From a virus (Duplodnaviria > Heunggongvirae > Uroviricota > Caudoviricetes): 12,483 nucleotides of DNA. Every line of letters begins with the position of its first letter. Within the stretch, counting starts at the first letter, position 1. Location of the stretch: the IMG/VR virus record IMGVR_UViG_2636415477_000012. One strand, 5' to 3'. This document shows, one piece after another, positions 2,008 through 12,483 of the stretch. The notes under the pieces are model-generated. The model saw only the letters and a program-made list of their open reading frames with translations. It had not been told where the DNA came from and searched no databases. The position numbers were made by a program, and so were the translations under genes.

Positions 2008-2018
2008 TCCTTAATACC

Positions 2019-2435
2019 CGTCATGTTAACTGTGTGGAGGGTAACACCACGCTTTATGCCCTGCCGAAACCCGAGGTTGTCCTGCGCTGGCGTGAGCAGA
2101 CCACAGATGACTTCCGCTTCTGTTTTAAGTTTCCGGCGACCATTTCGCATCAGGCAGCATTACGGCATTGCGATGATTTAGTGACTGAATTTTTGACCCG
2201 CATGTCACCGTTGGCTCCGCGCATTGGACAATACTGGCTGCAACTGCCTGCCACATTCGGCCCACGGGAGCTGCCTGCGCTTTGGCATTTTCTCGATTCT
2301 CTTCCCGGTGAATTTAATTATGGGGTGGAAGTCCGCCATCCACAGTTTTTCGCCAAAGGGGAAGAGGAACAAACGCTTAATCGCGGTTTACATCAGCGCG
2401 GCGTTAATCGGGTGATTTTTATTAGACACGTTTAA
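2019..2435 (+). pseudogene. yecE: Internal fragment of a DUF72-family (yecE-like) chromosomal gene, lacking its 5' end and with a divergent 3' end
   Basis: Translation VEGNTTLYALPKPEVVLRWREQTTDDFRFCFKFPATISH carries the DUF72 motifs (VE.N.TFY..P and FRF.FK....H). No upstream start or N-terminal region is present; after ...GVNRVI (about 2415) the frame runs into AT-rich sequence and stops at 2433-2435. Flanked by int on the left and the serine recombinase on the right. Confidence 0.55.
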
Positions 2436-2459
2436 ATACACTACCTAAAGCGATACAAT
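2431..2459 (+). promoter_or_regulatory. Candidate sigma70-like promoter for the serine recombinase gene
   Basis: TTTAAA (2431-2436), 17-bp spacer, TACAAT (2454-2459), about 30 bp upstream of the ATG at 2488 with GAGGTGG Shine-Dalgarno. Hexamer match only. Confidence 0.25.
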
Positions 2460-2487
2460 CTAGGTATCAGTTTTGAGGTGGTAAACA

Positions 2488-3747
2488 ATGAAACGTGTCA
2501 TTTCTTACATCCGGTTTTCATCTGAGAAGCAATCCCGAGGTGATTCATTACGCCGACAATCTAAGATGGTTACAGATTGGCTTAAGGCTCATCCTGAGTA
2601 CTACCTTGACCAAGACTTATCTTTTCGTGATTTGGGGGTGAGTGGATTCACTGGTAAGCACTTGAAAGGTGGCTTAGGTGACTTCTTAACCGCTATCGAG
2701 AAAGGGCTTGTTAAAGCTGGTGATACGCTCTTGATAGAATCTCTTGACCGTTTGTCACGCCAGAACGTAGACCGAGCAAGTGAGCTATTACGAAACATTC
2801 TTCGCTCTGGTGTAGATGTAGTCACCTTGTCCGATGGTGAACATTACACACGAGAATCTCTTAAAGACCCGTTAGCTCTGATTAAAAGCATTCTGATAAT
2901 GCAGCGGTCGCATGAGGAGAGTTTGAGGAAGTCTGAGCGTATACAAGGTGCATGGAACCGTAAAAAAGAACTCATCTCTGAAGGTATCAAGATTTCTAAA
3001 CGTTGTCCTGCATGGCTTAAGCTTAATGATGACCGTAAAAGCTTCTCTGTGATACCTGAGAAAGTAGAGACTGTGAAGAGGTGCTTTCAGCTACGGTTAG
3101 AGGGCAAATCTATCTGGGAGATTGTCAGGACTCTTAATGATGAAGGTCACCAGACACTTAACCAGTACAAAGCAGGTAAGTTTGGTCAAACCTCAGTGCA
3201 AGACCTTCTGAAGAATCGCTCTGTAATTGGTTACTTCACACCTAAAGGCTGTGAAGAGATTTCAGGTTATTACCCTGCAATTATAGATGAAACAATATTC
3301 TACAAAGTCCAGCAACTATCATATTCTCGTTATGGAAGAAAGCCTGCTTCAGATAAACCATTGAGCGTGAATCTTTTCAAAGGGGTTATCCGTTGTTCTG
3401 AATGTGGTCATGCTCTGATTATCACAGGCTTTAGCGATACAAGAAACGGGATTTATCGTTGTCCTCTTCGTAATGAAAACCGTTGTAGTGCTAAAGGACT
3501 TTCACGTAAGCAAACCGATGGTACATTGCTTACTCTGCTATCTCGTCTTGACCGATTTGATAGCGATACGACGAATATCATAGATATGTTGAGGCTACAC
3601 CGTGAACACATCTCAAGCAATATTGAAAAGCTGGTACAGCTATCACTTGAAATTGAAGATTTGTCAGCTGCGTATTTTCATGAAAGGAGATCACTCAATA
3701 ACTTCCATCGAGATCGGGTAATAACATTTGAACAGATCGCTGAATAA
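2488..3747 (+). CDS. Large serine recombinase (serine integrase), N-terminal ~397 aa native; the last ~22 codons and the stop lie inside the IS21-family left end
   Basis: Resolvase-type catalytic N-terminus VISYIRFSSEKQSRGDSLRRQ (Ser nucleophile), recombinase domain, Cys-rich zinc-ribbon CSECGH...YRCPLRNENRC, then the start of a coiled coil. The ORF continues from 3681 to 3747 through the GATC/AATAAC repeats that form the IS end. Confidence 0.85.
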   Translation: MKRVISYIRFSSEKQSRGDSLRRQSKMVTDWLKAHPEYYLDQDLSFRDLGVSGFTGKHLKGGLGDFLTAIEKGLVKAGDTLLIESLDRLSRQNVDRASELLRNILRSGVDVVTLSDGEHYTRESLKDPLALIKSILIMQRSHEESLRKSERIQGAWNRKKELISEGIKISKRCPAWLKLNDDRKSFSVIPEKVETVKRCFQLRLEGKSIWEIVRTLNDEGHQTLNQYKAGKFGQTSVQDLLKNRSVIGYFTPKGCEEISGYYPAIIDETIFYKVQQLSYSRYGRKPASDKPLSVNLFKGVIRCSECGHALIITGFSDTRNGIYRCPLRNENRCSAKGLSRKQTDGTLLTLLSRLDRFDSDTTNIIDMLRLHREHISSNIEKLVQLSLEIEDLSAAYFHERRSLNNFHRDRVITFEQIAE

Positions 3748-3780
3748 CATCGATGGAGATCACTTTTGACTCATTTTGTT
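3689..3780. repeat. Four phased 23-bp subterminal repeats at the IS left end, each starting with GATC
   Basis: GATC at 3689, 3712, 3735 and 3758 (exact 23-bp spacing). AATAAC at 3697, 3720 and 3743, i.e. in the first three units (same spacing). Unit 1 versus unit 3 match at 18/23 positions. Confidence 0.6.
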
Positions 3781-3861
3781 ATTCAGTGATCTCCATCAAT
3801 GTTATTGGAACTTCACAGGTGTGTTGATCTGTATCTTTTGCCATTCCGGTAAAGGATACCT

Positions 3862-5403
3862 ATGCCAACAGTTCCAATTTCTATGAGAAAACTTAAAGAA
3901 ATTCTTAGGCTTAAATACGGTGTTGGACTCAGCCATCGACAAATTGGTCGTAGTCTTGCAATCTCCCCTTCCGTTGTATCCAGATATGCTAATCGGGCGG
4001 CTCAACTTGGCATAAAGCAGTGGCCCTTACCTACAGGATGGGATGATACAAAACTAAAACATGCGTTCCTTCAGACCCAGGTTAAGATGAAGAAGCACTC
4101 TCTGCCTGACTGGGCTACAGTACACCGGGAACTGCGTAATAAATGCGTGACGCTGCAGCTACTCTGGGAAGAATACTGTGAGCGTAATCCAGGCGGTTTT
4201 TACAGCTATAACCATTACTGCCGGATGTACCGTGAATGGCTCAAAACCACTTCACCATCAATGCGTCAGGTACATAAAGCTGGCGAAAAACTTTTCGTTG
4301 ATTACTGTGGACCTACCGTTGGCGTTACCGACCCTGAGACCGGAGAAATAAGAACTGCTCAGGTCATCGTAGCTGTTCTCGGGGCATCAAGTTACACATG
4401 GGCAGAGGCCACCTGGTCTCAGCAGCTTGAAGACTGGGTGATGAGTCATGTTCGCTGCTTCCAGTGGTTGGGTGGCGTTCCTGAACTTGTTGTTCCGGAC
4501 AATCTGAAAAGCGCCACATCCAGGGCATGTAAGTATGATCCTGACGTTAACCCTACCTACCAGCAGATGCTTGAGCATTATAATGTCGCAGTTTTGCCTG
4601 CGCGGCCACGTAAACCGAAAGATAAAGCCAAAGCTGAAGTTGGCGTTCAGGTTGTTGAACGCTGGATCATGGCCCGAATCAGGCATGAGATCTTCTACAG
4701 CCTTGCATCGCTTAATCAGCGCATTCGGGAGTTGCTGGAAAGACTGAATAACAAAATAATGCAGAAGTTGGGTTATTCACGTGCAGAACTCTTCATCCAG
4801 CTTGATAAACCCGCACTGAAGCCTCTTCCTGAAGCCAGTTACAGTTACACCCTGGTGAAGAAAGTCAGAGTTCATGCCGATTACCACGTGGAAATCGACA
4901 AACATTACTACTCGGTTCCATGTTCGCTGTTAGGCCAGCAACTGGAAGCATGGATCTCCGGAGAACTGGTAAGACTCTTCAATCAGGGGCAGGAGGTTGC
5001 TGTGCACCCGCGCAAGCGTACTTATGGCTACAGTACCCGCAACGAGCACATGCCTGAAGCTCATCGACAGCATGCCACCTGGACGCCAGAGCGTCTTCTG
5101 GAATGGGCGGGGCACATAGGCAGTGAAACTCATAGTTATGTGCTTCATATACTGAACTCTCGTCCACATCCGGAACAAAGCTATCGCTTCTGCCTTGGAC
5201 TCCTGAACCTTCATAAAAAATACAGTAAAGCCAGACTTAATGCAGCATGTGCAAGAGCTCTGAAAACAAAGGTATGGCGTCTGTCAGGTATTAAATCGAT
5301 CCTGGAAAAAGGTCTGGATAAACAACCTGTTCAGGATCCAAAACCAGATCTGTTATCCACGATGGAACACGAAAACGTACGCGGCAGTGAGTATTACCAC
5401 TGA
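3862..5403 (+). CDS. istA: IS21-family transposase IstA
   Basis: 513-aa ORF with N-terminal helix-turn-helix region (LSHRQIGRSLAISPSVVSRY) and DDE-type core segments (LFVDYCG ... VVPDNLKSA ... KAKAE); immediately followed by istB. Confidence 0.9.
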   Translation: MPTVPISMRKLKEILRLKYGVGLSHRQIGRSLAISPSVVSRYANRAAQLGIKQWPLPTGWDDTKLKHAFLQTQVKMKKHSLPDWATVHRELRNKCVTLQLLWEEYCERNPGGFYSYNHYCRMYREWLKTTSPSMRQVHKAGEKLFVDYCGPTVGVTDPETGEIRTAQVIVAVLGASSYTWAEATWSQQLEDWVMSHVRCFQWLGGVPELVVPDNLKSATSRACKYDPDVNPTYQQMLEHYNVAVLPARPRKPKDKAKAEVGVQVVERWIMARIRHEIFYSLASLNQRIRELLERLNNKIMQKLGYSRAELFIQLDKPALKPLPEASYSYTLVKKVRVHADYHVEIDKHYYSVPCSLLGQQLEAWISGELVRLFNQGQEVAVHPRKRTYGYSTRNEHMPEAHRQHATWTPERLLEWAGHIGSETHSYVLHILNSRPHPEQSYRFCLGLLNLHKKYSKARLNAACARALKTKVWRLSGIKSILEKGLDKQPVQDPKPDLLSTMEHENVRGSEYYH

Positions 5404-5414
5404 TACGGGATCCA

Positions 5415-6164
5415 ATGATGAATCATCTTTACGAACAACTGACCGCACTTAAACTCACCGGCTTCCGTGATGCGCTTAAAAAGCAACTTGCTCAGCCGGG
5501 CACATACCAGGAGCTGGGCTTCGAAGAACGCCTGTCATTACTGACAGCAGAAGAACTAACCTGCCGTGAAAACAGGAAGGCAGAGCGTCTGATCAAACAT
5601 GCACGGTTCAGACTTAATGCTGAGTTATCAAAGCTGGATTATCGTAACAATAGAGGGCTGGACAGGGCCCTCATCCGTTCACTCAGTCAGGGAAACTGGT
5701 TAACCCTGAAACAAAATATTTTACTGACCGGGGCCACCGGCAGCGGTAAAACGTTCCTGGCATGTGCACTTGGTCATAATGCCTGCCGACAGGGATACAA
5801 GGTCTACTATTATCGCCTTAAAGCGCTGATGGAACAGTGCTATCAGGGGCATGCTGATGGAAGATACAGCAAACTTTTGACCAGGCTGAATAATAGCGAT
5901 CTGCTGCTTCTGGATGACTGGGGGCTGGAACCTCTCTCATCAGAACAGCGTAGCGACCTGCTGGAAATAGTGGATCTGATGTACCAACGAGGCTCAATCA
6001 TCGTAGTGAGCCAGTTGCCGGTGGAAAACTGGTACAAAATGATCGGAGACTCCACACATGCGGATGCCATCCTAGATCGACTGGTTCATGGCAGTATCAA
6101 GATCGAACTTAAAGGAGAATCAATGCGGAAAATACAATCTCCGTTGACCGAAGGAGATCAGTGA
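5415..6164 (+). CDS. istB: IS21-family ATP-binding helper protein IstB
   Basis: 249-aa ORF with Walker A GATGSGKT and Walker B LLLLDDWG; starts 12 bp after the istA stop. Confidence 0.9.
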   Translation: MMNHLYEQLTALKLTGFRDALKKQLAQPGTYQELGFEERLSLLTAEELTCRENRKAERLIKHARFRLNAELSKLDYRNNRGLDRALIRSLSQGNWLTLKQNILLTGATGSGKTFLACALGHNACRQGYKVYYYRLKALMEQCYQGHADGRYSKLLTRLNNSDLLLLDDWGLEPLSSEQRSDLLEIVDLMYQRGSIIVVSQLPVENWYKMIGDSTHADAILDRLVHGSIKIELKGESMRKIQSPLTEGDQ

Positions 6165-6200
6165 AGGTAATTTAAAAACGGTTCTGTGAAAGTGACACGA

Positions 6201-6237
6201 ACCGATCTCCATCGATGTTACTCACCGATCTCCTTCA
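6201..6237. repeat. IS right terminal inverted repeat with two phased GATC units
   Basis: GATC at 6204 and 6227 (23-bp spacing); the reverse complement matches the left-end units, including the perfect 17-mer gatctccatcgatgtta at 6204-6220. Confidence 0.6.
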
Positions 6238-6243
6238 CGGTAA

Positions 6244-6597
6244 TACGCATCAGCTATTACCAGCAAGCTAAAACAACTAAAGAATGAGCTATCACAGGTT
6301 GATGCGGATATCGAGAAGGAGACACAACGCCTTAAATCTATTGATGTGGGTTGTTTGTCTGATTGTGACTTGACTACAAAGGCGGGAAGGATTGAAGCAC
6401 AACTGATAATCAAAAGTGCTGTTAAAGAGGTCGTTTTAAATACTGCTAAACGTCGCTGTAAAGTGACTTTTCACAATGGTAGAGCAATCACCTTACCAAT
6501 AACAGAAAACCCCTCAGAGGACGTTACAGAGGCTATACAGTCGCTTTCTGAGGTCACTGAGAGGGGTTTAATAGATGTTGATGAGGTTATCATATAG
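6244..6597 (+). pseudogene. Probable C-terminal remnant of the interrupted large serine recombinase (coiled-coil region); has no ATG start
   Basis: Open frame from just after the TAA at 6241-6243 to the TAG at 6595-6597 translates to YASAITSKLKQLKNELSQVDADIEKETQRLKSID...; same strand and same reading-frame phase (position mod 3) as the recombinase; heptad-like charged sequence. The ORF track lists only a GTG-initiated part (6346-6597). Confidence 0.45.
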
Positions 6598-6611: not shown

Positions 6612-7385
6612 TCAGTATCGCTTGTTAGGATTAACAGAATACTTCTTCAAAGTACTACCTGTACCAGCATTATTAAGCACCTTTGAAGCTTGCTCATTAG
6701 CGGCATCTGAGAAGGTGCTTTTTCCGTTCTTAACTCTGACATTTTTACCACAATTGATACGGGCTTGAAGTTGCTCATTAGTAAGTTCACTCGTAGAGCG
6801 ATTATATAGCTCCTGACACATCAACATACCGTTACCTAAGCTTGTCGTAGTGTTCCCTGTATTCTTTTTACTGGTAGCACCACCATCACTTGTGGTAGAA
6901 GTCCTTCCGGTCGCAGCCGAGATATCAGTCTGACCCACAATAGCTTTAAAGTTAATTTCCTGAAAAGTTAATTGGATTCTAAGACCATTGGCAATACCAA
7001 CATCTTTAGAGGCTTTAAAGTTTGTAATAATTGAGTCGTCAATCTTAATACCATCTTTACAGACAACTGAGATAATTTGCTTCTGGTCACGCCAGTTTTC
7101 AAGAGTGTCTATGAAGTTTTCCACCAGCTTATTATCTCTTGAGATAAGGATACTACCGGATTCACCAACCACAACCACACCACTGATTGAAATAGTTCTT
7201 GGTGAACGCATTACATTATCTGTTACAGTCTGCCCTGATTGCATATTTTGAGTGGTAACCATCATAGGGCTGTCAAATTCCATGTTTTCAGTTGCTGATA
7301 GTGACAAGAAATTATCTGGTTGGCCTTGTAGATGGAAGTAAACGCCATCTTTACCACTGTAACGAAGCTGATTAGTGTAAATCAT
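6612..7385 (-). CDS. Hypothetical protein (257 aa) directly downstream of the tape-measure-domain gene; possibly tail-associated
   Basis: ORF-track entry 6612-7406 begins at a TTG. I prefer the in-frame ATG at 7385 (MIYTNQLRY...), preceded by AAGGAG 6 nt upstream. Ser/Thr/Gly-rich C-terminal half. No recognisable catalytic motif. Confidence 0.6.
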
Positions 7386-7460
7386 TAAATTCTCCTTTGA
7401 TTTCAAAGGCTTAGTGTATTTTAATCATTTTTAACCAAGCCTTTGATATATAAGTGTTTT

Positions 7461-7548: not shown

Positions 7549-9678
7549 TCATTCTTCCTCTGGATAGCTTGAACTTAAGAGCATATCCTGCGTGAACTGG
7601 TCATTAGCCGATTGACTGAAATTAAAGAAAGCTGGTTCATCCGGTCTAACAGTTGCTTCACCAGTGATATTAACTGACAAGGGCTTCTTAGCTTCTACTG
7701 TTAAAGCATCAACCTTGCGTGATAGTTCACTAATAGTCATTGCAAGTTGAGCATTGCTATTAACCATGTCACCTGTGATAGCTGGTGTAGTTGATTGTGT
7801 GTTATTAACAAGGTTACTCATTGGCTCTTGGAAGTTAGCAATTTTATTAGCTGCACCATTAAACCAGTCAGCGATAGAACTACCAATCTTAGCCCATCCA
7901 TCATTAATTTGGTTTGGTGTAGAATCGCCTTTGTATTCAGGGTTGAAGTTTGTCTCTGTTCCAATACCTGATTGATGTAAGTTCGGATTCTTAGCTGCTT
8001 CAGGGTTTAAATTATCAAGAGCAAAGTTTACCAACTCAGCATAAAGGACAACTCTACCGACTTTACTTAGCGCACCACCTGAAGAACCAGCCTTGCCAGC
8101 TTTAGCTTTATTAACAGCGTCACCGAATGAAGTAACAGCGTTTGCAAGGTTTAACAAGCCTCCTGCTACATTTGCAGCCTTTTGAGCAGTAACAGCTACG
8201 GCAAGCATCTTCAAACCATCAATTAACCCATCAGATAAACCATCAACAATTTTTTTCTGAGTGTCATTTAGTGAACGGTAAGCTAATGTCACCTCATCGA
8301 AGAACGCTCTTACCCTGTAACTGATATCAGTCAGGCTATCCACACCACTTGACATAGAAGTCATGAGACTACCAAGAGATTCACCAAGACTCTTACCGCT
8401 TCCACCTAAACTGTTTAAAAGCGTTGTTAGGCTTCTTGTAAAATCTTGCAGACCATTTTCAGAACCTCTAAAAATATCCGTTAATGAGTTATTCCAGGTA
8501 TTCTTTAAGTTCCCTAACATTGTCTGCGTAGAGTCCTGAATAGCTTTCCAGCCACCTCTGGAATTAATCTGTGAACCAAGTTCTTTAGCAAATTTAGGAA
8601 GTGCATCAGAGGCTTTAACATCACCATTTTTCATCTTATCGAAAAGCTGTTTTTCAGTCAGACCTAAAGCCTTTGCAAATGCCTGAGTAGCACCCGGTAA
8701 AGCTTCAGATAGTTGCCCCTTCAACTCCTCAGCCATCACCTGACCCTTAGAAGCCATCTGTGACACTGCGGTTAATGCTCTTTGAATCTGCTCATCTGAA
8801 CGACCCATTAAACGAGCATAACCTGTAAGGTTTTTAAATAACTCTTCTGACCCTTCAAGACCCATCGTAGTCGTTGCACTTGCACCAAATGAAGCAAATT
8901 GCGCTTGTGTTTCGGTTGTGTCCATACCAGTAATTTTAGTTAAATCTTGAATGAACTTTTTAACCTGTGTACTTTGGTCACCGAATACGAAATCAATACT
9001 TCTTTCCGATGATGCACGCTGTAAACCAACTTCCATTACTCGCTGATAAGCGGATAGTACAGCCTGAAAGCTGATAAATGCACCTGCTGTTTTCACTGCT
9101 ACTGAACTTAAATTATCAAGAGAACTAGCTGCTTTGTCACTATTAATGCTGGTGGATGTATGACCTCTGGCTTTAGCAATTGCTTCTCGTACACTTGAAT
9201 TTAGTTTAGCAAGGGCTTCATTAAATTTTGAATTATCCATTGACCCAGCTTTAGCAGATAGCCCGTAAAACTGACTCTTAATGTATTTCTCGACAATTGG
9301 GTTAAGACCTTTTAGCTTAGACATATTCGCTGAATAAGCTGCTGTGATTGCTCTGTTGCCGCTAATTCGTGGCTGTCTTGGCTGTCTAAGTGGCTTTAAA
9401 GTATCCTCAATTTCCGTTTTAATCTTAAACGCTCTAGTGTTTTTAAGACGCTGCTCAATCTTGTCAAAGGTCTTATTAAACTTCCTTTCAAGTTGCCCTA
9501 AAGAACTTGTCAGATTGCTGTCAAGTTGCTTGGTATCGACCTTAAACGCTCTATTCAAATTACGTTCAATTCTTTGTGCTGACTGCAAAGCTGCCTTTTC
9601 AACTCTTTGCAAGCCCTTAATAACGTTCTCGCTGAAGCCTAGCTCAACGATAAAACTATCAACTGTGAATTTGCTCAT
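7549..9678 (-). CDS. Tape-measure-domain protein (709 aa), phage tail tape-measure-like
   Basis: ATG at 9678 with AAGAGGTGA Shine-Dalgarno and an in-frame stop immediately upstream. Segment ELKGQLSEALPGATQAFAKALGLTEKQLFDKMKNGDVKASDALPKFAKELG matches the pattern of phage tape-measure domains as I recall it. Long helical, Gly/Ser/Ala-rich regions (GSGKSLGESLGSL, AGKAGSSGGALSKVG). Confidence 0.7.
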   Translation of the reverse strand: MSKFTVDSFIVELGFSENVIKGLQRVEKAALQSAQRIERNLNRAFKVDTKQLDSNLTSSLGQLERKFNKTFDKIEQRLKNTRAFKIKTEIEDTLKPLRQPRQPRISGNRAITAAYSANMSKLKGLNPIVEKYIKSQFYGLSAKAGSMDNSKFNEALAKLNSSVREAIAKARGHTSTSINSDKAASSLDNLSSVAVKTAGAFISFQAVLSAYQRVMEVGLQRASSERSIDFVFGDQSTQVKKFIQDLTKITGMDTTETQAQFASFGASATTTMGLEGSEELFKNLTGYARLMGRSDEQIQRALTAVSQMASKGQVMAEELKGQLSEALPGATQAFAKALGLTEKQLFDKMKNGDVKASDALPKFAKELGSQINSRGGWKAIQDSTQTMLGNLKNTWNNSLTDIFRGSENGLQDFTRSLTTLLNSLGGSGKSLGESLGSLMTSMSSGVDSLTDISYRVRAFFDEVTLAYRSLNDTQKKIVDGLSDGLIDGLKMLAVAVTAQKAANVAGGLLNLANAVTSFGDAVNKAKAGKAGSSGGALSKVGRVVLYAELVNFALDNLNPEAAKNPNLHQSGIGTETNFNPEYKGDSTPNQINDGWAKIGSSIADWFNGAANKIANFQEPMSNLVNNTQSTTPAITGDMVNSNAQLAMTISELSRKVDALTVEAKKPLSVNITGEATVRPDEPAFFNFSQSANDQFTQDMLLSSSYPEEE

Positions 9679-9859: not shown

Positions 9860-10075
9860 TTAATGCCTGACAAGATAATGTAGTTCCGTTTCACCTATGA
9901 TTTGAGCATCAGAAGGGATACGGTCAATACACCATTTTGGAATCTTGCGTGTTTTTGGTTTGCGTGAGGTGATAATTTGATGTTTGGTTTTAATTCTTAA
10001 GGCTGGCTTAGTTTGTAACTTTAAGTTTTCACAAACAGACTTAATAGTTTCATAGCGTTCTGTTAAATCAATCAT
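9860..10075 (-). CDS. Hypothetical small basic protein (71 aa)
   Basis: ORF-track entry; ATG at 10075 with GAGGTGA Shine-Dalgarno 4 nt upstream; Lys/Arg-rich; 22 bp after the stop of the upstream gene. Confidence 0.5.
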   Translation of the reverse strand: MIDLTERYETIKSVCENLKLQTKPALRIKTKHQIITSRKPKTRKIPKWCIDRIPSDAQIIGETELHYLVRH

Positions 10076-10097: not shown

Positions 10098-10802
10098 TTA
10101 AACAGCCTTGCTAAATTCTCGTGGAACACTCAGAAAATCATTGAAGCTGATAATCTGTGCCAACTCTTGACGGTACTCCTTAGCCAGCGCTTGATGGTCA
10201 CTAATCAGCTTAGCCAGTCTTGATTTCAGCAAATTAATCTCATTTTCTCTTGCTTTCATCAGTTTCTCTTTGGCAATTTCTTCAAGCTCAGCTTGTGATT
10301 TATCAGCAACAATTAGAGACAGTCGATGTGGTGCTCTGACAGCTCTTTCGGTGCGAACAACTCTTTGACCTTCTGGTAAATCTGCAATCACTTTACCAAT
10401 CTCTACAGGGTCATACCCCCAACCGTCACGGTCTAGTCGAGAGAAATAAGCATAAGGATTGGTTTGAAGCTCCATCAAAATAGCCATTTCGTCAATTTCG
10501 TCTTCAAGCTTGGACTGAATTTTCTCGTAAACACTTCTCATTGCTTCTTGAGAGTCTTTAATAGCTTGGAAATATCGGCGTTGTAGCTTCAACTTCAAAT
10601 CAAGCTCACATTCCTCATTCATCGAAAAATCAATTTCAACTCTTGGAATCTCGAGTGGTTCTGGTGGAATATATGGACCTTTATTTACTTCGTGTGATTC
10701 CCGCCAAGCTCTATCAAAAGATTCACGCAAAGTTAATTCGTGAATATCAAGTGCACTTGGTTTGTTTTCGATAATCATTTCATGTTCATCACGGATAGAC
10801 AT
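10098..10802 (-). CDS. Hypothetical acidic coiled-coil protein (234 aa)
   Basis: ORF-track entry; ATG at 10802 with GAGGAAAA Shine-Dalgarno; Glu/Asp-rich helical sequence; no recognisable motif. Confidence 0.65.
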   Translation of the reverse strand: MSIRDEHEMIIENKPSALDIHELTLRESFDRAWRESHEVNKGPYIPPEPLEIPRVEIDFSMNEECELDLKLKLQRRYFQAIKDSQEAMRSVYEKIQSKLEDEIDEMAILMELQTNPYAYFSRLDRDGWGYDPVEIGKVIADLPEGQRVVRTERAVRAPHRLSLIVADKSQAELEEIAKEKLMKARENEINLLKSRLAKLISDHQALAKEYRQELAQIISFNDFLSVPREFSKAV

Positions 10803-11286: not shown

Positions 11287-11364
11287 TTAATTCTTATTTA
11301 CCGTGTTACCTACCCAGCAACCAACAAATAAACCCAAAGCTGTCCAAGCAATTATTAAGCCCAT
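11287..11364 (-). CDS. Possible 25-aa hydrophobic peptide (MGLIIAWTALGLFVGCWVGNTVNKN)
   Basis: I translated it by hand. Its ATG overlaps the TAA stop of the upstream 107-aa gene (TAATG). Single predicted transmembrane-like stretch. No other support. Confidence 0.25.
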   Translation of the reverse strand: MGLIIAWTALGLFVGCWVGNTVNKN

Positions 11365-11687
11365 TAATGCACCACCTTCGAATCCGTAACCAAAATATTG
11401 TCAGCGTACAAAATTGCTATAGCTGCCTTGAGATATTTTTCAGGGCTAACGCTGTATTTGTTCGTTTGCTCGATAACCAATCTTTTCATGTTGCTGTCTT
11501 TAATTGGTAGCATCATTCGAGGCTCGTTAAACTCCACCGAGTGAATAAAGTCAGAGATGCTTTCCGCATTATCAGCCATTAACTCTAACAACTTATCAAA
11601 GTCAATGCTAACACCTACATCAGTGAAAGCCTGAATCATCATAGCGGTGTCGTTATCAACGAAAATTTGCATTGGGTGATTATTCAT
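11364..11687 (-). CDS. Hypothetical acidic protein (107 aa)
   Basis: ORF-track entry; ATG at 11687 with AGAGGAA Shine-Dalgarno about 8 nt upstream. Confidence 0.6.
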   Translation of the reverse strand: MNNHPMQIFVDNDTAMMIQAFTDVGVSIDFDKLLELMADNAESISDFIHSVEFNEPRMMLPIKDSNMKRLVIEQTNKYSVSPEKYLKAAIAILYADNILVTDSKVVH

Positions 11688-11824: not shown

Positions 11825-12211
11825 TTACACAGACGCTTTAATCTTGTAGTATTGACTACGTGATAAGCCGTATTTCTCAGAAATATAACTTTGTGATTGT
11901 CCTTTGGTGATTGCATCAATGATTAAATCTTTATTGTATCTGTTGCCATTGGTTTTGTGCTTGTCACCACTTTTAATAGAGTTGAAATTCTCAATTAATT
12001 TAATGGCGTCTTTAAGGTCGTCTTCGTAAGCATAATCAAAACCCCTGATAAACTCGAAATCACCATTATCTTTTTGTGCTTCAGCCCAGATATCAAATCT
12101 TGAGGCTAATTGCTGGTGGGTAAACTTGGGTTTATTGGTTTGTGTTACGTCCCTCCAGATTCTACCGTCAAATCTTACCAAATGGTCACGATGTTTATAA
12201 AAGTCATACAT
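11825..12211 (-). CDS. Hypothetical protein (128 aa from the ATG at 12211) with a C-terminal helix-turn-helix
   Basis: The ORF-track entry starts at a TTG (12244). I prefer the ATG at 12209-12211, which overlaps the upstream TAA (TAATG) and has GGAGG 5 nt upstream. C-terminal DLIIDAITKGQSQSYISEKYGLSRSQYYKIK resembles resolvase/transposase-type helix-turn-helix. Confidence 0.6.
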   Translation of the reverse strand: MYDFYKHRDHLVRFDGRIWRDVTQTNKPKFTHQQLASRFDIWAEAQKDNGDFEFIRGFDYAYEDDLKDAIKLIENFNSIKSGDKHKTNGNRYNKDLIIDAITKGQSQSYISEKYGLSRSQYYKIKASV

Positions 12212-12483
12212 TAAACCTCCTGTAGTAAGTTGTTTGGGTGGCAATTTCTTTTATTACCATCCTTGAAGATAATCTTTTTAGTTGCCTGAACTTCATGATG
12301 CAAAAACCAGATGACATACTTCAGATAATAATCACGAGTGCCATAACGAATCATTGGATTACCGTAAGCATCATCTCTTGTCTTAACCTCTCCGCCATCA
12401 ATCCATTCAAGCATTCCTGTTTCGTAATTAATCATGAAGTAAGTTGCAAAGAACCGTTTAATATCATCTCGCCATTGCTTCAT
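12211..12483 (-). CDS. HNH-endonuclease-like protein (HNH_3-type pattern); possibly 5'-partial at the window edge
   Basis: YGTRDYYLKYVIWFLHHE...IIFKDGNKRNCHPNNLL resembles the H...DGNK.NN..NL pattern of phage HNH endonucleases, but the usual His before DGN is replaced (FKD), so it may be degenerate. ORF starts at an ATG at the last base of the window. Confidence 0.45.
   Translation of the reverse strand: MKQWRDDIKRFFATYFMINYETGMLEWIDGGEVKTRDDAYGNPMIRYGTRDYYLKYVIWFLHHEVQATKKIIFKDGNKRNCHPNNLLQEV

Follow-up and report, generated by a model that had tools for sequence, protein, structure and literature searches.

A phiP27-type prophage and a conserved serine-recombinase island with Felix O1-like tail genes on either side of an internal remnant of Escherichia coli yecE

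Introduction

As far as we know, virulent-phage satellites have been characterised in detail essentially only in the case of Vibrio PLE and ICP1. PLE resembles the chromosomal island described here in being small, in encoding a large serine recombinase without a full set of virion genes, and in being apparently tied to a virulent myophage, not a temperate phage. It parasitises its helper and also restricts it, and as far as we are aware it remodels capsids and carries neither a tape measure nor a tube initiator. The island differs from PLE in its host, its candidate helper lineage (Ounavirinae) and its gene content, its dependence on a helper is a candidate one, and no sequence homology was detected between it and the catalogued satellite genes. 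PICI, cf-PICI and P4-like satellites share with the island their size class, site-specific integration and a small number of helper-related morphogenesis genes, but they have tyrosine integrases and temperate helpers, whereas the island has a serine recombinase. Their marker genes are alpA, pri-rep and terS (PICI), psu, sid, delta and alpha (P4-like) and capsid genes (cf-PICI); none of these functions was recognised in the island with PHROG, Pfam or NCBIfam, and we know of no PICI, cf-PICI or P4-like satellite with a tape measure plus a tube initiator.

Tail assembly is also a target of defence. Tai systems lie on mobile elements and act against phage tail assembly (PMC11364771); they inhibit through small proteins that attach to the central tail fibre of lambdoid phages and have no homology to the island proteins, whereas the island encodes full-length paralogues of myophage structural proteins. 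The tail core that these resemble is that of Bas63 and Felix O1. In Bas63, gp18 is the tube initiator, and the last 25 residues of the tape measure, gp17, contact the baseplate hub (PMC12609058). The gene in which the island resides, yecE, is in turn the integration site of a group of Stx phages, for which an att core, CAYGCAGTTAA, has been published (PMC5592225).

The present analysis concerns a 12,483-nt stretch of DNA (the window), deposited as virus record IMGVR_UViG_2636415477_000012, in which a short piece of yecE lies between two recombinase-bearing elements. A first-pass annotation, made from the sequence without database searches, had proposed that two independent integrations had struck this one chromosomal gene. 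We compare both junctions with occupied and empty sites in other genomes and consider what the right-hand element may do.

Results

The yecE remnant and the left junction

The DUF72/yecE-like reading frame had been taken for an internal segment of the gene only, and both Pfam and the alignment to intact yecE agree. The frame at 2034-2435 matches DUF72 over profile positions 22-138 of 217 (E 1.3e-31), and window 2014-2419 aligns without gaps to the intact, chromosomal yecE of strain CUVET18-565 (L002 3001-3406) at 98.8% identity. The remnant proper occupies 2027-2419 on the forward strand, corresponds to nt 87-479 of 819 and shows ~99% identity to alleles that are intact; it lacks about 29-32 codons at the N-terminal end and ~113 at the C-terminal end. 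Comparison with the empty site, which the annotation had recommended, places the breakpoints of both elements to the base, exact identity beginning at the att core 2027-2037 (yecE nt 87-97) and stopping at 2419 (yecE nt 479), close to the 3' divergence that had been put after about 2415. The yecE segment is matched in 5,419 of the 5,426 complete E. coli genomes, which is far beyond chance, and the entire 480-nt query (2008-2487) is matched at 99% identity or more in 777 genomes. No RNA family was found in the window by an Rfam scan.

The left-hand element is a lambdoid prophage, inside which the window stops, showing just its last 2 kb. On the forward strand, a DUF4222 protein (1-243) and a small hypothetical protein (about 247-393) stand in a stretch, 1-393, that is collinear with comparison locus L001 9994-10386 at 94.8% identity, and both genes carry these annotations there. 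They are followed on the same strand by the excisionase gene (402-638), which equals L001 10395-10631, annotated "excisionase family protein", and at which the phiP27 record also annotates an excisionase, and by a 437-aa tyrosine integrase of phiP27 type (694-2007; Pfam Arm-DNA-bind_2, 9.8e-24, and Phage_integrase, 3e-18). At the nucleotide level, the integrase alone is 99% identical to that of phage PhiR49_2 and 94.5% to that of phiP27, and the int-xis module gives the same figures (94.5% to the Stx2e phage phiP27, 99% to PhiR49_2). The closest sequenced phage is PhiR49_2, from ECOR13. The records of phiP27 and PhiR49_2 both begin at the att site and end at positions equivalent to window 2036 and 2038, respectively.

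The tyrosine-integrase core, TTAACTGTGTG, lies at 2027-2037 (yecE nt 87-97) and is found alike in attB (TTAACTGCGTG), at the distal junction and here. Expressed as TTAACTG(C/T)GTG, 11 bp by three-way alignment, it is the reverse complement of the published core (PMC5592225), except for a C-to-T change at position 8. As in phiP27 and the other lambdoid or Stx prophages that integrate in yecE, an integrase gene stands at the junction beside this same 11-bp core; the window differs from them in having T, not C, at position 8, and in its last 2 kb of prophage it shows neither stx nor other parts of the prophage body. The annotation had held that yecE is an established site for lambdoid, including Stx-converting, phages and that the left junction fits this, which the shared core and the relatedness to phiP27 uphold. 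It had placed the prophage end 12-26 bp to the left of the fragment; the placement is right, and the spacing can now be given as 19 bp from the integrase stop codon (2005-2007) to the core. Directly before the core, on the forward strand, phage-arm sequence at 2014-2026 partly mimics yecE codons (..TRHV.. against ..ARHF..), matching attB at 9 of 13 positions and being of phage origin by three-way alignment. PGAP carries a chimeric DUF72 ORF through this stretch, starting from an ATT codon at 1989.

The right junction and the serine recombinase

The right junction is the attL of an island with a large serine recombinase. In L001 and L003, attL, attR and attB overlap by exactly 7 bp, which gives the core TGATTTT, common to attB and attP, at 2413-2419 (yecE nt 473-479); L001, L003 and the window do not differ in their att sites. 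Reconstruction of attP gives AGTGTATTTAGAC, core, GTTTAAATACACT, an imperfect inverted repeat with arms matching at 12 of 13 positions around a symmetry centre on TT 2418-2419, and this TT is probably the crossover dinucleotide. Positions 2420-2487 (forward strand) comprise the attL P' arm together with the recombinase leader, a stretch that holds the right arm of the attP repeat, GTTTAAATACACT, at 2430-2442 and a promoter-like site at 2431-2459 that is a consensus match from a promoter scan. The recombinase ATG, at 2488, is 68 bp past the yecE breakpoint; a serine-recombinase gene had been noted about 50 bp to the right of the fragment, so its placement stands and its spacing is refined.

The gene itself is in two pieces. 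Its 5' part, codons 1-394 (2488-3668, forward strand; Pfam Resolvase, Recombinase and Zn_ribbon_recom), has the active-site serine motif, YIRFSSEKQ, at residues 7-15, as read from the translation, and runs collinear to 3669 with its uninterrupted 507-aa counterpart in L001. There, after codon 394 and within a heptad-rich coiled-coil stretch, ISEc12 is inserted, a 2,581-bp element of the IS21 family (3669-6249, forward strand) with terminal inverted repeats TGCGTATT/AATACGCA, istA (3862-5403), istB (5415-6164) and Pfam matches to rve with Mu-transpos_C_2 and to IstB_IS21. Its 5-bp target duplication, TCAGC, is present at 3664-3668 and 6250-6254, and 100% identical copies elsewhere are annotated as ISEc12. 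The displaced 3' part, the C-terminal ~113 codons (6250-6597, forward strand), lines up collinearly with the last part of the intact gene, L001 13657-14004. In L001 and L003 the recombinase gene is uninterrupted, and strains PEC122 and SW070917 have intact islands. Because ISEc12 splits the recombinase, the copy in the window has probably lost its own excision and become immobile. Recombination directionality factors lack a shared signature, and family scans recognised none among the island genes; the source of such a factor could be the island itself or a phage that infects the cell.

Serine integrases of the A118/LI type offer the nearest comparison, sharing the three domains (Resolvase, recombinase, zinc ribbon) as well as a short identical core and an imperfect inverted repeat in attP. 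The A118 integrase structure (PDB 4KIS) aligns with the C-terminal half of the island recombinase, although the relationship is distant (E 1.7e-4). Unlike in that type, the attB of the island is inside yecE, and the recombinase of the window is broken by ISEc12.

Occupancy of yecE

Of the 5,426 complete E. coli genomes, the prophage junction is found in 506, the island junction in 272 and the two together in 16, leaving 490 with the prophage without the island and 256 with the island without the prophage. The genomes inspected include some with the prophage only (L004), the serine-recombinase element only (L003) and neither (L002). The 16 double occupants fall somewhat short of the 25 expected under independence (odds ratio 0.59, p 0.04, uncorrected for phylogeny and detection thresholds). 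Use of a second site in the same gene by a serine-recombinase element had been thought less expected, which these counts contradict: the same attB is filled in 272 of 5,426 genomes, and it is also filled in a more distant enterobacterial metagenome contig.

The annotation had advised looking for the missing ends of yecE at the far ends of the two elements, and in strain SW070917 both were found there. Its yecE nt 1-96 adjoins yecD at the distal end of a 55-kb lambdoid prophage, and its yecE from nt 473 adjoins yecN at the distal end of the serine-recombinase element. The window reaches neither distal junction, and this exact island copy is absent from the complete RefSeq E. coli genomes, where the recombinase is matched at 94.7% at best and is never interrupted by the IS; the far ends are for this reason inferred from other strains. 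The first 96 nt of yecE would thus lie tens of kilobases to the left, near yecD (about 55 kb in SW070917), and the remaining 3' part at the far end of the island, near yecN.

Content and conservation of the island

The right-hand element is a conserved island of ~11.7 kb and ~39% GC and is not a prophage. GC content is 38.6-39.9% among the islands, 38.9% in the Felix O1-like phage and 51% in the host. The five core genes of the family, p107, p234, p71, the tape-measure protein and the tail-tube initiator, are present in 10/10 copies examined, and gene order is kept at yecE, beside wrbA (with a different serine recombinase) and at a third site. The core ORFs are intact, with dN/dS of 0.07-0.39 at dS from ~0.1 to saturation, pairs of p234 with the divergent L001 copy reaching 0.50; by these ratios, the island genes are under purifying selection.

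The core genes of the window copy lie on the reverse strand. p71 (9860-10075) is a small protein without a family match, dN/dS about 0.17-0.39; it is basic, unlike the acidic tape-measure chaperones. p234 (10098-10802) is predicted to be helical or coiled-coil; its named homologues occur in Escherichia, Shigella and Citrobacter only and are all "hypothetical", many further matches being unnamed, and its AF2 model is helical at a low confidence (pLDDT 58), too poor for a fold search. p107 (11364-11687) has homologues in 3,447 clusters at 90% identity, and the 120 matches listed are all "hypothetical" or unnamed. The best fold matches of its AF2 model (pLDDT 72) are weak (E 0.04) and are to chains E/G of F-plasmid relaxosome structures, which we take to be TraY; on this modelling, p107 is possibly a tandem ribbon-helix-helix DNA-binding protein. 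Further along the reverse strand are an HTH protein (11825-12244; weak Pfam HTH_28, with an orthologue in L009) and an HNH_3 endonuclease-like protein that runs to the window edge (12211-12483; HNH_3 5.8e-05, with orthologues in L003 and L009).

NCBIfam and Pfam gave no match for p71, p234, p107 or p183. Across PHROG, Pfam and NCBIfam, island matches are limited to recombinases, tape measure, initiator, HNH, Dam and HTH proteins, and capsid, terminase, portal, packaging, replication and capsid-remodelling genes were not recognised in the island. Among GTDB species representatives, a relative is present in E. albertii only. Those IMG/VR copies whose match reaches the island edge run on into host sequence, with no free-island form seen; being integrated, they are uninformative on packaging. 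An operator-like palindrome, TGATTC-N11-GAATCA, is present in L003 and absent from the window.

Full-text literature searches (yecE/wrbA serine recombinase, Felix O1 satellites, tape-measure satellites, defence hotspots) returned no published description of the family and no paper tying it to any phage, and a survey of E. coli defence islands makes no mention of yecD, yecN or tape measure. The island is apparently undescribed.

Tail genes and the link to Ounavirinae

The tail-tube initiator homologue (6612-7406, reverse strand; 264 aa, "Dit-like" or "baseplate protein", Pfam Dit_like 3.5e-19) shares 68.7% amino-acid identity, end to end, with Felixounavirus garuso_119, the product of the gene directly after the garuso tape measure, and is 66-71% identical to Ounavirinae proteins in general. 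All 299 phage records with a match belong to Ounavirinae, which are virulent and Felix O1-like; among 50,697 records, no temperate phage had a related initiator gene. Since its gene follows the tape-measure gene immediately, it is taken as the counterpart of Bas63 gp18.

The tape-measure protein (7549-9678, reverse strand; 709 aa, Pfam TMP_3, dN/dS 0.14-0.37) is 27% identical to garuso_118 over its full length. Its middle has diverged, at 15-30% identity to the phage, and its terminal segments are conserved, with 79% identity in the first 40-column block and 84% in the last 13-column block, ending in ..LLSSSYPEEE; island copies are 42-80% identical to one another over the whole protein. At the nucleotide level, patches of the island reach 78-83% identity to Felix O1-like phages. 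When profiles of all 44 island ORF groups were compared with the whole garuso genome, the tape measure and the initiator were the only matches, and 13-mers common to island and phage outside the tail genes were short, AT-rich and not convincing.

The island has its tape-measure and initiator genes side by side in the order of the Bas63/Felix O1 tail core, and its tape measure keeps the conserved N-terminal segment and a C-terminal segment matching the hub-contacting end of Bas63 gp17. Unlike in those phages, the genes are chromosomal and unaccompanied by sheath, tube, hub or capsid genes. The initiator homologues, the tape-measure termini, the nucleotide patches and the GC content indicate a helper-lineage link to Ounavirinae.

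Discussion

Two elements in one gene

The distal yecE ends, the single-occupant genomes (prophage in L004, serine-recombinase element in L003, as the first-pass annotation had proposed to look for) and the empty site favour the model of that annotation, and we consider it very probable that the middle of yecE (2027-2419) was left by two independent site-specific integrations 376 bp apart. Its term "prophage pile-up" was half right, because the left-hand element is a prophage and the right-hand element an island of ~11.7 kb. A reading of the yecE-like segment as cargo, that is, as a DUF72 homologue borne by the phage or the island, deserves almost no credence. It could appeal to the stretch 2014-2026, of phage origin yet resembling yecE codons, and to the complete chimeric DUF72 ORF that PGAP annotates in prophage-only strains, but the segment is at least 98.8% identical to the chromosomal allele and ends exactly at both att cores, its missing ends adjoin yecD and yecN in strains of the same arrangement, and empty-site and single-occupant genomes are known. 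The annotation had itself raised a phage-borne homologue as the finding that would count against its model; the segment aligns instead to chromosomal yecE, and the junction mapping leads us to reject the cargo reading. It is likewise very improbable that prophage and island arrived jointly, or were joined by rearrangement, as their adjacency and the 16 genomes with the common arrangement might suggest. The two elements are bounded by separate pairs of att junctions at different points of yecE, single occupancy (490 and 256 genomes) greatly outnumbers joint occupancy (16), and the double occupants range over 85-97% identity, a spread that points to different combinations. We reject a composite element on its separate att pairs and the mostly single occurrence of its parts, and retain two separate integrations.

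What the island may do

We infer, as a possibility that falls short of probable, that the island is a candidate satellite or tail-interfering parasite of Felix O1-like phages. It would exploit or sabotage the tail assembly of an infecting Felix O1-like phage, as a PLE-like satellite, as an interferer with tail assembly, or as both. It has the generic satellite trait of small size (11.7 kb), with the tape measure and the initiator as its only structural genes. A more specific proposal, possible but on the doubtful side, is that it represents the first recognised satellite family of virulent Ounavirinae in Escherichia, Shigella and Citrobacter, whose own tape measure and initiator would dock on the hub of the helper and redirect or corrupt its tails. 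If true, such a satellite would act inside the tail, not on the capsid.

Two other readings bear on this. That the island is a functionless leftover of a temperate phage would accord with its two recognisable structural genes, its many small ORFs of unassigned role and the IS disruption of the window copy; we think it improbable and reject it, given that size and gene order are kept across copies whose dS ranges from 0.5 to saturation, all core ORFs are intact with dN/dS of 0.07-0.39, the same cargo moves with a different recombinase at another site, and no temperate phage among the 50,697 records has a related initiator gene. It is, on the other hand, only somewhat unlikely that the island is a mobile defence element, Tai-like and unpackaged, that poisons Felix O1-like tail assembly with divergent tape-measure and initiator paralogues and is no satellite. 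Interference with tail assembly from mobile elements has a precedent (PMC11364771), the retention of docking termini beside a diverged middle is what a competitive inhibitor would be expected to show, and packaging and replication genes were not recognised. PADLOC, however, found no catalogued defence system in the island, its matches being an orphan methyltransferase (1.2e-09) and two marginal ones (LmuB, CARF3), and a tape measure of ~700 aa, near helper length and with a partner initiator, would suit the building of tails over their blocking. The satellite and defence readings are not exclusive, because PLE does both.

Implications

Should the candidate satellite reading hold, an enteric island with tail-core genes of Felix O1 type would provide a second, tractable system for virulent-phage satellites, in E. 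coli. Felix O1-like phages are widely used in biocontrol and therapy, and the island could alter their host range and efficacy. For the locus itself, double occupancy of yecE is ordinary, and two unrelated recombinases have distinct attachment sites within a single 819-bp gene, both cores being known to the base. This is useful for the typing of prophages and Stx phages, because the island alone (5% of complete genomes) can give a PCR result of "yecE occupied". The island also supplies a natural pair of serine integrase and attB. The SW070917 relative of the window prophage, which has no annotated stx, carries a SPATE-type peptidase and a YadA-like gene.

Results

Window 2008-2487 has matches in 5,419 of 5,426 complete E. 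coli genomes, with yecE/DUF72 annotated beneath them, and window 2014-2419 aligns ungapped, at 98.8% identity, with yecE nt 74-479 of strain CUVET18-565 (L002), our uninterrupted reference locus (yecD-yecE-yecN-cmoA). The internal yecE-like fragment proposed in the first-pass annotation (a DUF72 ORF at 2034-2435; Pfam DUF72, profile positions 22-138 of 217) is therefore real, and the suggested comparison, run on L002, mapped both breakpoints and, together with the distal junctions, defined the att cores. A tyrosine integrase gene (694-2007; Pfam Arm-DNA-bind_2 and Phage_integrase) lies to its left, with an excisionase gene (402-638) among small prophage genes further left, and a serine recombinase gene (Resolvase, Recombinase and Zn_ribbon_recom) starts at 2488 to its right. 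Both genes do border the fragment closely, with amended spacings: 19 bp separate the integrase stop codon from the att core (previously 12-26 bp), the recombinase ATG is 68 bp past the break (previously about 50 bp), and the right break falls at 2419, a small correction to a divergence placed after about 2415.

At the left junction, the empty site and the window junction were aligned with a third sequence, from strain SW070917: the far junction of a prophage of this kind, where yecE is kept to nt 96 and followed by phage DNA; in the window, phage DNA runs to 2026 and yecE resumes at 2027. The common segment is TTAACTGCGTG, in the window version TTAACTGTGTG, and on the opposite strand it reads CAYGCAGTTAA, reported as the att sequence of Stx2 prophages that occupy yecE (PMC5592225), which bears out the earlier assignment of this junction to a lambdoid/Stx phage site. 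Identity across the int-xis region is 99% with phage PhiR49_2 and 94.5% with the Stx2e phage phiP27, and both phage records start exactly at the junction point. The left element is a member of a known family, the phiP27-type yecE integrators, and in Escherichia and Salmonella yecE is on the list of prophage-disrupted genes (PMC3603311). The 13 bases ahead of the core, within the arm-to-core stretch 1989-2037, are phage DNA imitating yecE codons, and in prophage-only strains PGAP annotates a complete, uninterrupted 256-aa chimeric DUF72 protein (L004 2982-3752) starting at an ATT codon within the end of int. Through this predicted protein, the prophage may swap in a new yecE N-terminus instead of simply destroying the gene. 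The SW070917 prophage (L005 35741-42133) also has cargo genes near its distal end, for a YadA-like adhesin and for a 1,335-aa S6-family (SPATE-type) autotransporter peptidase, and an IS4 in its tail-fibre region.

The right junction was resolved in strain PEC122 (L003), where an 11.7-kb insert separates yecE nt 1-479, on the side of an intact yecD, from the rest of the gene (nt 473 onwards) and yecN; SW070917 (L001) combines this insert with the prophage. attL and attR share TGATTTT, and neither arm differs between the window, L001 and L003. The reconstructed attP, AGTGTATTTAGAC-CTTGATGATTTTTATTAGACAC-GTTTAAATACACT, forms an imperfect inverted repeat whose centre is the final TT of the core, the arrangement expected of a serine integrase; over its C-terminal half the recombinase shows a distant alignment to the A118 integrase structure. 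By these sequence features, the right element classes as a serine-integrase element.

The left-site integrase-yecE joint, with related integrases, occurs in 506 of the 5,426 complete genomes, the right-site recombinase-yecE joint in 272, and both in 16; the last span 85-97% identity to the window and thus represent different element variants. The att sites lie 376 bp from each other, and each insertion leaves the other's site whole. Among the single-element strains compared, PEC122 has the island without the prophage and L004 the prophage without the island; the missing yecE ends were found at the distal junctions, the 5' part (to nt 96) in SW070917 and the 3' part (from nt 473) with yecN in PEC122. 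With separate single and double occupants and mutually undamaged sites, the model of two independent integrations holds. The deficit of double occupants (16 observed, ~25 expected under independence; odds ratio 0.59, p 0.04) is uncorrected for phylogeny or detection limits, and we therefore conclude only that the two elements show no positive association. The double insertion was described correctly and is in itself routine; "prophage pile-up" suits the left element, while the right one, from its PEC122 gene content, is not a prophage.

In the window, the recombinase gene, compared with the intact 507-aa gene, is cut after codon 394 by a 2,581-bp ISEc12 (IS21 family), complete with istA, istB and terminal repeats TGCGTATT/AATACGCA, and flanked by a 5-bp target duplication, TCAGC (3664-6254 with both duplicates); the remaining 113 codons lie at 6250-6597. 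The break falls in a heptad-rich stretch, which, from the alignment to the A118 integrase and the structure of that protein, we take to be the coiled-coil motif needed for synapsis. The insertion looks recent, because E. coli has ISEc12 copies at other places with 100% identity. No complete RefSeq genome has the recombinase gene interrupted in this way. The window thus holds two site-specific insertions with defined cores and an IS disruption.

In PEC122, the island comprises, in this order, the recombinase gene, a baseplate/Dit-like gene (a tail-tube initiator homologue), a tape-measure gene, small genes (70, 234, 107, 71, 92 and 183 aa) without a family match, an HNH nuclease gene, a Dam-type methylase gene with an HTH domain, and a small resolvase-type recombinase gene. 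PHROG, Pfam, NCBIfam and PADLOC scans detected no capsid, portal, terminase, lysis, replication or defence system. The gene order recurs beside wrbA in E. coli O121 (L009 4576-19187), with a different, 479-aa serine recombinase and IS66 and IS2 insertions, and at a third site, where Citrobacter freundii is among the carriers; the yecE island occurs in a more distant metagenome contig as well, with p234 65% identical. Stx phages classically integrate at wrbA too, so the family shares at least two loci with them. Five core genes (p107, p234, p71, tape measure and Dit-like) are present in 10 of 10 copies examined. The p234 homologues with a named source belong to Escherichia, Shigella and Citrobacter; among GTDB species representatives, a homologue is present only in E. 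albertii.

About 200 phage records match the island DNA, essentially all Felix O1-like; the match covers part of the Dit-like gene, with identity of about 80-83%. Along its full length the Dit-like protein shares 66-69% identity with garuso_119, encoded directly after the tape-measure gene in the Felix O1-like phage garuso, and tblastn against 50,697 phage genomes gave matches in 299 records, every one from Ounavirinae (Felixounavirus 68-71%, the Sf17 and Citrobacter group 63-65%, Erwinia phages 46%). In a cryo-EM study of the related phage Bas63, gp18, encoded after the tape-measure gene, is the tube initiator, and the tape measure touches the hub and puncture apparatus with its last 25 residues (PMC12609058). 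Island tape measures are 27-29% identical overall to the phage protein, and three parts of it are conserved: roughly the first 45 residues (58-79%), a patch in the centre, and the C-terminal end (..LLSSSYPEEE; 53-84% across the final 13 alignment columns). No other core gene varies as much between copies as the tape measure (42-80% amino acid identity, even within one locus), yet the protein is always full length (678-709 aa; window copy 7549-9678) with both termini kept, which suggests diversifying pressure on its middle. GC content is 38.6-39.9% in the island, 38.9% in the phage and 51% in the host flanks. A terminator hairpin at the island's right end, outside the window (AGCCTCCTTAATTGGGGGCTTTTT; L003 25720-25751), is nearly identical to two Felixounavirus intergenic terminators (garuso 13547-13581 and 50568-50599).

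Discussion

The island family is widespread, is linked specifically with virulent Felix O1-like phages and is apparently undescribed; no description was found in searches of full texts available without subscription. Sequence comparison shows a conserved family under purifying selection with two Ounavirinae-type tail-core genes. We infer that the tape measure and initiator of the island would dock, during infection by a Felix O1-like phage, on the phage's baseplate hub and tube.

What such docking would serve can be read in two ways that are not mutually exclusive. The island could be a satellite, induced, copied and carried in particles with its own core proteins in the tails, a reading we hold tentatively and at somewhat short of even chances. 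It falls, by sequence, within the generic genomic definition of a satellite, and as a satellite it would be analogous to PLE and its helper ICP1, which also pair a serine recombinase with a virulent myophage. Marker-gene tests set it apart from PICI, cf-PICI and P4-like elements, and no homology to catalogued satellite or defence genes was detectable in the island. That the island poisons tail assembly has a precedent in Tai systems (PMC11364771), and we hold it to be slightly less probable. A functionless remnant is improbable. The window copy is damaged, its recombinase gene being interrupted; the core genes are old and functional, not debris, with pairwise dN/dS of 0.07-0.39 (up to 0.50 for p234 pairs with the divergent L001 copy) and synonymous divergence ranging upwards from about 0.1 until saturated.

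Several E. coli copies of the island, at yecE and beside wrbA, carry at their right end the small resolvase/invertase-type serine recombinase (189-191 aa; L003 25137-25706, L001 22944-23519, L009 18612-19187), which could act in multimer resolution or as an invertase. In L003, a 36-nt repeat with the palindrome TGATTC-N11-GAATCA (20261-20296 and 26050-26085) stands upstream of the p234-tape measure operon and in the attR arm, where circularisation of the island would place it upstream of the recombinase gene; it is a possible operator, and was not found in the window copy. Also in L003, a ~130-nt segment is repeated (21048-21174 and 22698-22801) upstream of two leftward gene blocks, and two 48-nt direct repeats (23117-23259), 95 nt apart, lie in a 600-nt non-coding gap; these are candidate promoters, operators or a replication origin. 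The repeated upstream segments hint weakly at regulation, as does p107, possibly a tandem ribbon-helix-helix protein like TraY.
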